Shown in pieces: positions 7,887 to 17,958 of a stretch of 64,000 bases of DNA. A model generated the notes under the pieces. It saw nothing but the letters and a program-made list of their open reading frames with translations. It had not been told where the DNA came from and searched no databases. The first letter of the stretch is position 1, and each line of letters starts with the position of its first letter. The DNA lies in NCBI GenBank assembly GCA_965238175.1, contig CBDEGZ010000003.1, positions 2,656,001 to 2,720,000 of the forward strand, given 5' to 3'. The DNA comes from Gammaproteobacteria bacterium. GTDB lineage: Bacteria; Pseudomonadota; Gammaproteobacteria; CAJXQU01. A program made the position numbers and the translations under genes.

Positions 7887-7905
7887 CCCTTAAATCCCAC
7901 AAAAT

Positions 7906-7931
7906 AAAAAGCCCCGATAGCGGGGCCTTTA
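7906..7931 (-). terminator. Intrinsic terminator/attenuator after tRNA-fMet
   Basis: Minus strand reads GCCCCG-CTAT-CGGGGC followed by TTTTT. Confidence 0.75.
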
Positions 7932-7935
7932 TTGT

Positions 7936-8012
<77 letters not shown>

Positions 8013-8231
8013 CTTGTATTAGTGCGCGGAATGTTACCTTCAACCGCTAATTTATTCAAGCTGAATGATCTAAAGAGTACTCAAATATATTATGCCTGGC
8101 CAATATCTTGACAATTCTTTAACTAAAGGTTCATGTTAGTAATGTCGATAACGCCTTTAAGGATCTAGAGATATAAGTATTTTTATCTTATCTCAAAATT
8201 ATTTAAGGATCAGTTTCACAATAATACGGAT

Positions 8232-14754: not shown

Positions 14755-16230
14755 TTACTGTGAAATTAGCCTACATGTCGGCTCCCGTTGCATTACTTCC
14801 ATCGATACCGAGACTTGTTCTTCAATAAACAACACAGACCTTCCACATTCCAAAATCGTCTTAACTTTCTCTATCGCCAGTCTCACAGGAAACCCAAAAC
14901 GTGCGCCACGATGATTCCGTTTCATTCTGGTAAGATCAAGCTTTTTAGCAACAACCTCATCGGAATGATGATAAAACTCATAAAACTTCCCCACCCGAAA
15001 GAACAACACGTCCCCAGGAAAACGCCAGCGAAAATATCCATACTGTTGACTGACTCGCTGAAAGTTCTTTGGTACAGCATATTTTCTGATCAACTTCCAG
15101 CTAACACTATCAAACTCAAAATACTGCTGCAAATAATCAAATCTGTTCCAAATCGATTGCCACAGGTTCCAGCAACTGGCGAGTTTAAAATGTCCCAGAT
15201 ACGACGATAGCATTGCTGATAATTTATCCAGCAAAGTAATATCAAAGCGATAGCGCGTGACACCGCCCCTTTCTTCAACCAGCAAGGATTCATAGTCACA
15301 CAATTGTTCCTTAAGGTGATTCACCACCCGCCGCCTCACCAGCATATAATCCCGTCGCACGATATAACCGAGAAAATCCAGCCCATTCGAAACTGAGGCT
15401 AGCGGCTGTCGTGAGTTGAGTTGTAACTGGCGATGTTCATTCAGATTAACTTCTATCTGACTTTTCCATTCCAGTAGTTGCTCTCGCTCCTTTGCCAGCA
15501 GCACAAAATCATCACAATAACGTAAGTAATACCGGCACTTCAATTGATGCTTAATCAGATGATCCATACCGGTCAGATAGACATTGGCAAAAAACTGGCT
15601 ATTCAAATTACCGATGGGCAATCCTTTATTGTCACCACAACCAAACAGGGTTTTATGTGCGGGTATTCGTCCAGTTAAATCACGTCCCCGAAAAATATGG
15701 TTCTGTGTACAATCATGATAGACCAGTATTTTCGTCAACCATAATGCCGTGTCATCGTTAAGCTTTGCCGACAATAAGCCATAAAGAATATCCTTATCAA
15801 TGGTCATGAAATAATTACGGATATCCAGTTGCAAATAATACGCTGGTTGTATGCCGTTGCAGGTCACTTGTCGAATAAACCGCTGTAGACGTTTCACACC
15901 ACGATGCACTCCTTTGCCTTTTCGACAGGCATAGGAATCATGGATAAATATTGGTTCCCAGATTTTCTCCAGATAATCTACCAGTAAATGATGCACCACA
16001 CGGTCACGAAAATCGGCAGCAAAGATTTCGCGTAACTTAGGTCGAGTTGAAAAAAAGCAGACAGAACGGGTCGGCTGGTAAGTACGATTGATCAATGACT
16101 CTCGCAGGCTCAACAGTTGTTTCTCCTGCTCAGCTTCAAAACGCAATGCATTAATTGTGTTGCGCTTATTTCTGCGACAGGCGTAATACTGCCGATAGAG
16201 ATTTTCAAGCGACAGGTCGAGAGTGATCAT
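14755..16230 (-). CDS. DGR reverse transcriptase with C-terminal MutS domain-I-like module
   Basis: SLENLY..YY.CRRNKR N-terminus, PKLREIFAADFRDRVVHH, IHDSYACRKGKG, LDIRNYF, GLPIGNLNSQFFANVYL (DGR-type SQ motif), YLRYCDDF and DFLGY. C-terminal FPGDVLFFRVGKFYEFY...GFP...G.SVLFIEEQ resembles MutS_I. Confidence 0.95.
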   Translation of the reverse strand: MITLDLSLENLYRQYYACRRNKRNTINALRFEAEQEKQLLSLRESLINRTYQPTRSVCFFSTRPKLREIFAADFRDRVVHHLLVDYLEKIWEPIFIHDSYACRKGKGVHRGVKRLQRFIRQVTCNGIQPAYYLQLDIRNYFMTIDKDILYGLLSAKLNDDTALWLTKILVYHDCTQNHIFRGRDLTGRIPAHKTLFGCGDNKGLPIGNLNSQFFANVYLTGMDHLIKHQLKCRYYLRYCDDFVLLAKEREQLLEWKSQIEVNLNEHRQLQLNSRQPLASVSNGLDFLGYIVRRDYMLVRRRVVNHLKEQLCDYESLLVEERGGVTRYRFDITLLDKLSAMLSSYLGHFKLASCWNLWQSIWNRFDYLQQYFEFDSVSWKLIRKYAVPKNFQRVSQQYGYFRWRFPGDVLFFRVGKFYEFYHHSDEVVAKKLDLTRMKRNHRGARFGFPVRLAIEKVKTILECGRSVLFIEEQVSVSMEVMQREPTCRLISQ

Positions 16231-16233
16231 TCT

Positions 16234-16363
16234 CCGGGGCGAACGGCAAGGGCAAACAAATTATTAGTCTTATTGTTGTTGTTCTGGTTGCCGTTATTGA
16301 AGTTAAAGTTCAGCGCATTAGAGGAATTCAACTCCACGCCTGACCAGTAGTTATTCGACTGGA
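16234..16363 (-). repeat. DGR template repeat (TR)
   Basis: 130-nt copy of 17270-17399 (offset 1036). In the target's frame it reads QSNNYWSGVELNSSNALNFNFNNGNQNNNNKTNNLFALAVRPG, with 15 AAY codons. Confidence 0.96.
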
Positions 16364-16583
16364 CAATTACCTGCCCTCTTTCCGATAGTATCCTGAGGAT
16401 AAACTCACAAAACGGATACCACCCCACCGGCAAGAAATCTTTGTAATAAAGTAGCCTTGCCTGAATTAACATGCCAGAGAAACTATTCTCAGGCGGGACA
16501 GGCGCACAATGATACACGTTGGTACGCTTACCTGAACTGTCCATACAAACAGGACAAATTAACAGATAATTCTGACTCTCTCA

Positions 16584-16955
16584 TCAAACTACACCTTTTT
16601 CATTTTTTCGTACTCGACTGCTCCTTATCCAGCCCTCGTTCTGTCTGCAAACTGACACCACCTGTTCGATGGCAAATTGAAATGATTTAAAACTTTTGAA
16701 GGCCTTTGCCTCTTTCGCTATACGCACGAGTATCAATAATTCATCGAGCTGTTCGCGCAAGACCAGAAGATGAGGGCGCTTATCCCTGGCGGCATTGGCT
16801 TTCATAATCAGGGAAACCACTACACGGCTTTTGTTGCGTAGTTCTGTGCCGAGCGTGTATTTGTGATAACGGGAGAAGCCCGAAACCACTTTTTCGAAAT
16901 AAACGGCCACATCCATCGCTTGTTTGTAAATCGGAAGATGTTCGTATCTTGCCAT
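16584..16955 (-). CDS. avd: DGR accessory variability determinant (Avd-like four-helix-bundle protein)
   Basis: Basic 123-aa helical protein (HLPIYKQA...FSRYHKYTLGTELR...QNEGW) located directly upstream of TR and RT. Confidence 0.88.
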   Translation of the reverse strand: MARYEHLPIYKQAMDVAVYFEKVVSGFSRYHKYTLGTELRNKSRVVVSLIMKANAARDKRPHLLVLREQLDELLILVRIAKEAKAFKSFKSFQFAIEQVVSVCRQNEGWIRSSRVRKNEKGVV

Positions 16956-17103: not shown

Positions 17104-17178
17104 ATTCAAAACCGCAGGGGGCGTCCCCTACCCCCCTAAAGGGTCAAATCATACAAATGACCGAATGACCAAATTACG

Positions 17179-17958
17179 TTACCGCCGTTTCCTTCTAAAC
17201 CCTGCCAACCCAAACAATGCGGAACCCATCAGCCATACAGCCGCTGGAACTGGGACGGCGGCAACATCGCCGGGGCGAACGGCATGGGCAAACAAATTAA
17301 AAGTCTTATTGCGGTTGCGCTGGTCGCCGTTAGTGAAGCTAAAGAGCAGCGCATTAGAGGAACCCAACTCCACGCCTGACCAGTAGTTATGCGACTGGAG
17401 GTTGGTGAATTGGCCTACGTTGTTGAGTCCAGCGCCTGTTTGTGCGACACAGCCGGTTGGGGCGCTGTTGTTGGGTGTGCAAAAGCCCAGGTTGCCCAGC
17501 GTTGCGTAGTATAAATGACCCATTTCTGAGACTGGGGTGTTACTACTGTTCTGCCAGCCGATGCCAGTGGCGCCTGTACCAATGTCGCTGGTGCCGTTGT
17601 TGGTGAAGCCGGTCTGGAAGCTTGTACCATTGATGGGACTTAGGCTTGGCAGGCGCCAGTCGTTGAAGCCGAGGTGGTTGGCGCTGTTCATGCCCGCTAT
17701 CCACAGGTTGGCGTTGTCCCAGGTCATGCGACCGGTGCTGCCAACAGTGTTGGCGGTGTCGTCAGCTTCATTGGTGCTGAGTGTCAGGCCAAACTGGTTG
17801 GTCAGTGCCAAGTTGGCATTGGAGAGCCAGGTGATGTCCAGTACATCATCATAGAGGGCATCGCCGCCCAATCTTGAGATTAAGGTGGCGTGGGCGGTGC
17901 TGCTTAAGCAAATGAGTAGTGTTATTACGCTGAAAGACTTAATACTGATGAGTTTCAT
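17179..17958 (-). CDS. DGR target: secreted DUF1566/Lcl (C-type-lectin-like) protein with PEP-CTERM-type (VPVPA) sorting signal
   Basis: Signal peptide ending AHA; LDITWL..ANL, MTW..A, GFNDWRLP, YWSG and AVRPG motifs. C-terminus is VPVPAAVWLMGSALFGLAGFRRKRR (motif, TM helix, basic tail). AAGGAG SD upstream. Confidence 0.92.
   Translation of the reverse strand: MKLISIKSFSVITLLICLSSTAHATLISRLGGDALYDDVLDITWLSNANLALTNQFGLTLSTNEADDTANTVGSTGRMTWDNANLWIAGMNSANHLGFNDWRLPSLSPINGTSFQTGFTNNGTSDIGTGATGIGWQNSSNTPVSEMGHLYYATLGNLGFCTPNNSAPTGCVAQTGAGLNNVGQFTNLQSHNYWSGVELGSSNALLFSFTNGDQRNRNKTFNLFAHAVRPGDVAAVPVPAAVWLMGSALFGLAGFRRKRR
17270..17399 (-). repeat. DGR variable repeat (VR) inside the target CDS
   Basis: 15 mismatches versus TR, 14 at TR adenines on the coding strand. 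Nine Asn codons are changed (to H, G, L, S, T, D, R, R, F). Confidence 0.96.

Follow-up and report, generated by a model that had tools for sequence, protein, structure and literature searches.

The subject of this study is a diversity-generating retroelement (DGR) whose reverse transcriptase (RT) ends in the mismatch-recognition domain of the repair protein MutS. It lies in a window of 64,000 nucleotides (nt) from Gammaproteobacteria bacterium (CAJXQU01), assembly GCA_965238175.1, contig CBDEGZ010000003.1, positions 2,656,001-2,720,000 of the forward strand, and all coordinates below are positions in this window. The host genome, of 3.35 Mb, is nearly closed, and the locus is a complete chromosomal DGR in which the target gene with its variable repeat (VR), avd, the template repeat (TR) and the RT gene follow one another on the minus strand. 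The tail of the RT is MutS domain I and not a whole MutS, and comparisons across related loci indicate that the fusion is real, under selection and common among related DGRs. As for its function, we tentatively suggest that the module may bind the mismatched cDNA:VR heteroduplex and blunt its reversal by host MutS/MutL.

A MutS domain I behind the thumb of the reverse transcriptase

Both profile and fold comparisons identify the tail. The Pfam model MutS_I (PF01624) matches residues 393-483 of the RT (E 3.3e-10; 40.6 bits, gathering cut-off 20.6), and the last 115 amino acids (aa) taken alone match it with an E of 2.4e-11 and 44.3 bits. For the tail, an AlphaFold2 (AF2) model based on an alignment of 44 modules reached a mean predicted local distance difference test (pLDDT) of 92.8 and a predicted TM-score (pTM) of 0.85, and a Foldseek search of the PDB with this model gave 49 matches at E <= 1e-3, of which all those listed are MutS, MSH6 or MSH3 chains (top match 3k0s_A, E 8.4e-7, TMq 0.74). 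At the sequence level, phmmer against the PDB aligned GKFYEFY of the module with GDFYECF of Taq MutS (1ewq, E 1.8e-4) and with GDFYELF of E. coli-type MutS; within the part aligned without gaps, F416 and E418 correspond to Phe36 and Glu38 of E. coli MutS (1e3m numbering). The match to MutS domain I is much better than expected by chance.

The protein ends 8 residues beyond the MutS_I match, so that the connector, lever, clamp and ABC ATPase (domains II-V) are absent; no other MutS Pfam domain was found in the 491-aa protein, and the NCBIfam MutS equivalogs scored only 31.3 and 25.9 bits on it, against cut-offs of 480 and 641.7. As all other MutS domains are missing, the module has no means of hydrolysing ATP, forming a clamp or signalling to MutL. 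The host genome holds two MutS_I matches, one in the fused RT and one in a canonical MutS (862-aa frame, 140 bits), and no small separate MutS_I frame; its MutL is a 629-aa frame.

An earlier note on this DNA, made from the letters of the sequence, had placed such a module, with an intact Phe-X-Glu motif and without an ATPase, at 14758-15050, and had read FYEFY at 14971-14985. The position agrees with the Pfam range, the motif is exact (the reverse complement reads TTT TAT GAG TTT TAT), and the profile and structure comparisons that it had proposed as checks both return MutS domain I where it had allowed that no similarity might be seen. The normal avd that it described beside the fused RT is likewise borne out by Pfam (bAvd, 48.2 bits, cut-off 40). 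The features of the RT gene are as follows.

14755..16230, minus strand: DGR reverse transcriptase gene (P0001), 491 aa and a TAA stop, from open reading frame (ORF) translation, Pfam RVT_1 and AF2/Foldseek
15364..16038, minus strand: RT fingers and palm, residues 65-289, the Pfam RVT_1 range
15508-15519, minus strand: catalytic Y238-C239-D240-D241, invariant in nine homologues
14782..15054, minus strand: MutS domain-I-like module, residues 393-483, in frame after the thumb, from Pfam MutS_I, AF2 and Foldseek
14977..14985, minus strand: Phe416-Tyr417-Glu418, the Phe-X-Glu motif, aligned to GDFYE of Taq and E. coli MutS

The enzyme that carries the module is an RT of the DGR type. RVT_1 was found with an E of 1.4e-15, the YCDD residues are unchanged across the alignment of homologues, and motif 4 reads IGNLNSQ, in which we take the 'SQ' to be typical of DGRs. 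A full-length AF2 model, built on an 81-row alignment, has a mean pLDDT of 94.8 and a pTM of 0.89, with no segment below pLDDT 50, and its best PDB match is the Bordetella DGR RT (8ub7_A, E 4.4e-24, 27% identity, TM 0.87 on the target). The linker before the module is structured in this model, with strands at 371-374 and 379-382, and the module is thus predicted to dock rigidly on the RT, without a flexible tether.

Distribution of the fusion and constraint on the module

To place the fusion among its relatives, one genome per GTDB species was scanned, which yielded 518 RT relatives, and the best 80 loci were used, with the module called by a hidden Markov model (HMM) built from the tails of the query family. 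RT and module share one stop-free frame in 47 of the 80 loci; in six of them the module match is weak (E 1e-3 to 1e-6), and one, L065, is a frameshifted RT in three pieces. The module lies in an adjacent frame in two loci (L068, L076), a separate MutS-like (MSL) gene stands upstream of the RT with nothing fused in three (L031, L033, L045), and the module is absent from the remaining 28. Pfam's own MutS_I model matches 36 of 81 RT ORFs, the query included, at E <= 1e-3. The hosts of the 80 loci belong to Pseudomonadota, Thermodesulfobacteriota, Nitrospirota, Myxococcota, Elusimicrobiota, Chloroflexota, Spirochaetota, Calditrichota and other phyla.

Database searches gave a similar picture. A word-indexed search with residues 380-491 retrieved eight other RT-length proteins of 461-512 aa, seven of which are full-length RTs with the module, while the eighth (P0008) ends within it; RVT_1 and MutS_I were precomputed on six of the eight, and F416 and E418 are invariant in the alignment of these matches. 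Against a representative library, the 115-aa tail matched 242 clusters at E <= 1e-3, of which 55 remain at E <= 1e-10. Among the 150 tail clusters listed, 136 are of at most 350 aa, being either gene fragments of fused RTs or stand-alone MSLs, and 139 contain G-x-[FYWH]-x-E.

In a tree of the RT part only (77 rows, after exclusion of four rows with short RT parts), the query belongs to a supported clade of 19 rows, 18 of them fused. The fused state is clustered on this tree, requiring 12 changes as against 23.4 in shuffles, and the supported branches alone still require at least seven changes between fused and unfused.

The earlier note had also considered that homologues might show two separate ORFs, joined here only by a sequencing error. 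Stand-alone MSL genes do exist, and the adjacent-frame modules of L068 and L076 and the broken RT of L065 could be taken in favour of this; however, the frame is uninterrupted in the query, in the seven database homologues, in the 47 loci of many phyla and in an orthologue of 86% identity (501-aa open frame), which was found in one of six other genomes of the same genus, and the AF2 model contains no disordered linker. Since this orthologue and the other homologues share the single open frame, we reject a sequencing or assembly artefact, whose probability we regard as negligible.

The residues of the module were compared in an alignment of 44 modules, comprising the query and 43 of the 47 fused loci (L007, L019, L021 and L065 were excluded for odd frames or truncation). 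G414 and E418 are present in all 44, and position 416 is always aromatic or His (F 32, Y 8, H 2, W 2); R482 is conserved in 43, G446 in 42 and P448 in 40. The residue before the Phe, which is Asp in the canonical GDFYE, is Asp in none of the 44 (R 13, K 8, A 7, C 7, S 4, others 5). The charge of the domain is also changed: the isoelectric point (pI) of the query module is 10.12 and the mean over the 44 modules 10.49 (standard deviation 0.82, minimum 8.75), against 4.85 for domain I of the host's own MutS. Judged from this alignment, the two mismatch-contact residues are under strong constraint in fused modules, and, as there is no ATPase to which the Glu could signal, the invariance of E418 points to direct base contact.

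Several loci depart from the simple fused arrangement. Stand-alone MSLs lie upstream of the RT at L031:234-680, L033:1-417, L034:1983-2381 and L045:2176-2496, in one clade with hosts from Chloroflexota and Verrucomicrobiota. All four read G-A/V-F-M-Q-V, with the Phe kept and the Glu replaced by Gln, and three of them are acidic (pI 5.1-5.9), in contrast to the basic fused modules. The RT of L034 additionally has a weak fused-module match (E 2.4e-4), and some elements may thus carry two MutS_I-like units. The genome of L018 (G012:C49) has MutS_I matches at 2010-2252 and 7900-8142, each of 45.3 bits, in 498-aa frames 5.9 kb apart, which looks like a duplicated fused-RT DGR. The 2.3-Mb Elusimicrobiota genome of L028 (G019) has five MutS_I matches: one is in the canonical MutS, one in an RT-length frame of 534 aa, and the other three in small frames of 87, 90 and 177 aa, one of which has an in-frame TGA. 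Finally, the stop-free frame of the fused RT at L007:3998-6556 continues to 853 aa, into a semialdehyde dehydrogenase by Pfam, which probably reflects a neighbouring downstream gene that happens to share the frame, rather than a genuine fusion.

What the module may do

According to a preprint on a Bacteroides DGR, deletion of mutS raised VR mutagenesis 5- to 10-fold, and repair of the heteroduplex looked all-or-nothing (bioRxiv 10.1101/2024.11.15.621889). The earlier note had proposed that the tethered domain could shield the mismatched duplex from host repair or steer integration, and the comparisons of host MutS and mismatch density given below do not decide for or against either idea. In our tentative reading, the module would be an autonomous nucleic-acid binder, strongly basic unlike domain I of the host MutS, and, carried by the RT, would recognise mispaired or extrahelical bases in the duplex formed by the adenine-mutagenised cDNA, most likely the cDNA:VR heteroduplex. 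It would occupy or distort this heteroduplex without recruiting MutL, so that host MutS/MutL would less often revert the new sequence in its all-or-nothing manner, and more diversified VRs would result. The basic charge, the loss of the Asp of GDFYE, the invariant Glu and a host with both MutS and MutL to evade all speak for this reading. A stronger form, in which the RT-borne MutS domain I would be a cis-acting anti-repair device, bound to the mismatches created by the RT and making this large DGR lineage intrinsically resistant to host MutS/MutL, is in our view rather doubtful. If it were true, retrohoming would stay efficient in repair-proficient cells, and DGR tools for directed evolution could be given the module, or the complete RT, as a substitute for deleting mutS or adding a dominant-negative MutL, the two measures used in E. 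coli DGR tools (PMC12875486; 10.64898/2026.07.21.739853).

The host repair background of related loci was compared for 50 of the 80, consisting of 26 of the 49 fused or adjacent-frame loci, chosen by hand so that no genome was represented twice, together with 24 of the 28 loci lacking the module (L037, L062, L072 and L081 were left out, the RT being short or cut). As raw counts, 25 of the 26 genomes with a fused RT and 11 of the 24 without the module yielded a canonical MutS, and with our own genome added the comparison is 26 of 27 against 11 of 24 (Fisher p 7e-5, ignoring phylogeny). Three of the 'module-less' genomes (G031, G044, G050) have small stand-alone MutS_I frames elsewhere in the genome. 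TR/VR pairs of at least 90 nt were sought in the related loci with an A-biased repeat finder; a pair was obtained for 37 of the 49 fused loci, for 19 of the 28 without a module and for one of the three with an upstream MSL, the remainder being mostly short contigs. The presence of the module does not track the type of target: of the VR-bearing ORFs, 48 of 52 have Lcl_C in fused elements, compared with 22 of 26 in the remaining elements.

Several points weigh against protection of the heteroduplex from repair. The 13 MutS-negative genomes are all of 0.5-1.9 Mb, so the co-occurrence with MutS is phylogenetically confounded, and the incompleteness of metagenome-assembled genomes also affects these counts; because an independent-pairs test on the RT tree had only three supported contrasts (sign test p = 1), we do not count the co-occurrence as support. 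Eight module-less DGRs reside in MutS-positive genomes, in which no small MutS_I frame was found. The density of TR/VR mismatches is equal with the module (0.143 per nt, 51 pairs) and without it (0.140 per nt, 25 pairs), and the module is therefore not tied to a heavier mutational load. The stoichiometry is awkward too, each RT having a single module while a VR contains about 16-20 mismatches, and the predicted rigid docking (pTM 0.89) would fit action on the RT's own product duplex at least equally well. According to Wu et al. (2018; PMC5758913), retrohoming of the Bordetella phage does not need mutS. Our literature search, with subscription journals and supplements outside its scope, found no binding or genetic experiment on the fused module or on stand-alone Msl.

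The main alternative is that the module acts during reverse transcription, at the TR-RNA:cDNA duplex emerging beside the thumb, where it would stabilise A:N mispairs or mispaired primer ends and serve as a mismatch-tolerance or processivity clamp. The single rigid body of the full-length model with its structured linker is in keeping with such a role, as is the invariable position of the module C-terminal to the thumb in fused loci, and a basic domain with conserved wedge residues would suit any mispaired duplex. The presence of avd also means that the known cofactor of cDNA synthesis has not been replaced by the module. However, MutS domain I reads kinked B-form DNA and not an A-like RNA:DNA hybrid. 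Moreover, the Bordetella RT (bRT; 328 residues in 8ub7) and many relatives mutagenise adenines without any such module. We consider this explanation unlikely on balance, while regarding it as a genuine competitor.

Less probable still is a generic nucleic-acid-binding or ribonucleoprotein-scaffolding domain of MutS_I fold, without mismatch specificity or a link to repair, which would assist the RT in retaining DGR RNA, cDNA or target DNA, for instance at the end marked by the initiation of mutagenic homing (IMH) element. The inversion of charge to a pI of about 10 and the loss of the GDFYE Asp could be so explained; the module was gained or lost several times (7-12 changes over the 77 rows) without a change of target type, and the stand-alone MSLs of one clade have Gln for Glu in four of four cases. 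Binding to the backbone can hardly explain, however, why the mismatch-contact residues are the best conserved (Glu 44 of 44; F/Y/W/H 44 of 44), and we give this account a low probability. Protection of the cDNA:VR heteroduplex stays our provisional preference. A natural RT lineage with a built-in mismatch domain that is unable to signal repair is an obvious test case for how DGR heteroduplexes escape repair, and the conserved contact residues, inverted charge and wide distribution of the fused RTs make them suited to that question.

The cassette and its relation to known systems

The other features of the cassette lie upstream of the RT gene on the same strand.

16231..16363, minus strand: template repeat (TR), 133 nt, a direct repeat 88% identical to the VR
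16584..16955, minus strand: avd accessory gene, 123 aa (Pfam bAvd)
17179..17958, minus strand: target gene, 259 aa, of Lcl_C (DUF1566) type with a PEP-CTERM/VPLPA-CTERM signal (Pfam, NCBIfam)
17267..17399, minus strand: variable repeat (VR), target codons 187-231, a direct repeat with the TR

TR and VR differ at 16 of 133 nt; the TR, which contains 40 A, has an adenine at 15 of these 16 positions, and 14 of the 16 affect the first or second codon position in the VR reading frame. From these fixed, adenine-biased differences the element looks active. With the TR as query, no second VR was found in the 3.35-Mb genome. The avd product also matches NCBIfam DivGenRetAVD (E 1.7e-11), but its 44.3 bits are below the cut-off of 80. 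The target protein matches Lcl_C with an E of 5.4e-8 and 33.6 bits, slightly below the cut-off of 34.9, and its C terminus matches PEP-CTERM of Pfam (E 0.0026) and VPLPA-CTERM of NCBIfam (29.1 bits, cut-off 25.35). The target thus joins an Lcl_C/DUF1566 variable domain to a VPLPA-CTERM/PEP-CTERM sorting signal, with the VR upstream of the anchor and not at the very C terminus; among fused-RT elements, PEP-CTERM was seen in 6 of the 52 VR-bearing ORFs.

In the Bordetella element, an intergenic spacer between TR and RT primes cDNA synthesis. Here the TR ends at the base preceding the RT start codon, leaving no intergenic spacer, so any equivalent of the spacer RNA would fall inside the RT coding sequence; in most related loci too the TR abuts the RT (TR end within about 20 nt of the RT match). 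A 105-aa ORF at 16227-16544 (minus strand) spans the TR and has a faint Lcl_C match (Pfam, E 0.01), which is expected because the TR copies the VR-coding segment, and this ORF is most likely not a gene. A scan of the cassette for promoters and terminators gave nothing above shuffled expectation; a G+C-rich hairpin with a T-rich tail at 17114-17131 (minus strand), 48 nt past the target stop and before avd, may act as a terminator or attenuator separating the target gene from avd, in a scan that as a whole was not above the shuffled level.

The type of fusion described here has been known since 2018 and is not novel. The earlier note had implied that only stand-alone MutS-like genes were described in DGRs, but Wu et al. 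(2018; NAR 46:11, PMC5758913) already reported C-terminal extensions in about 20% of DGR RTs and, in three related DGR RTs, a weak identity of this extension to MutS_I. The same paper defines a stand-alone MSL class of 16 DGRs, all with avd and with a pI of 7.2 +/- 1.7, whose genes form Architecture D, small and stand-alone, of 112-283 aa. A review restates the MSL class (PMC8632793), and the Bacteroides preprint names Msl in three DGRs and offers no test of it (bioRxiv 10.1101/2024.11.15.621889). MutS or MSL in DGRs is not mentioned in PMC7159879 or PMC6642488, and the literature search, within the scope given above, found no paper analysing the RT-MutS_I fusion. The present locus adds nothing in kind; its value is that of a clean, complete, single-target example in a nearly closed genome with MutS and MutL. 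What is new here is the basic character of the module, its predicted rigid docking, and the lack of any tracking of target type or mismatch density.

The RTs of Wu et al. (2018) are the closest precedent, being DGR RTs whose post-thumb extension matches MutS_I. In their paper the identity is called 'weak' and no analysis accompanies it, whereas the present module exceeds the Pfam cut-off and has a confirmed fold, and 47 of the 80 related loci carry the fusion. The MSL/Msl genes share with our module a MutS mismatch-recognition domain without an ATPase in avd-bearing DGR cassettes, and stand-alone examples occur within the same RT lineage (L031, L033, L034, L045). They are separate small genes, whereas the present module is inside the RT polypeptide; the MSLs of Wu et al. 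(2018) are reported as near neutral, as against a mean pI of 10.5 for fused modules, and the four found here have Phe-Met-Gln in place of the Phe-X-Glu of fused modules. With MutS domain I itself (E. coli 1e3m, Taq 1ewq) the module has in common the fold (TMq 0.73-0.75), the Pfam family and the motifs G-x-F-Y-E and G-F-P with a conserved Arg, and differs in lacking domains II-V, in its pI of 10.1 against 4.85 for the host MutS, and in the replacement of the Asp before the Phe. Finally, the Bordetella BPP-1 bRT-Avd system (8ub7) resembles the present element in its RT fold, in having avd adjoining TR and RT, and in adenine-specific TR/VR differences, whereas bRT, with 328 residues modelled, has no C-terminal module, and in our element the TR directly abuts the RT start codon.

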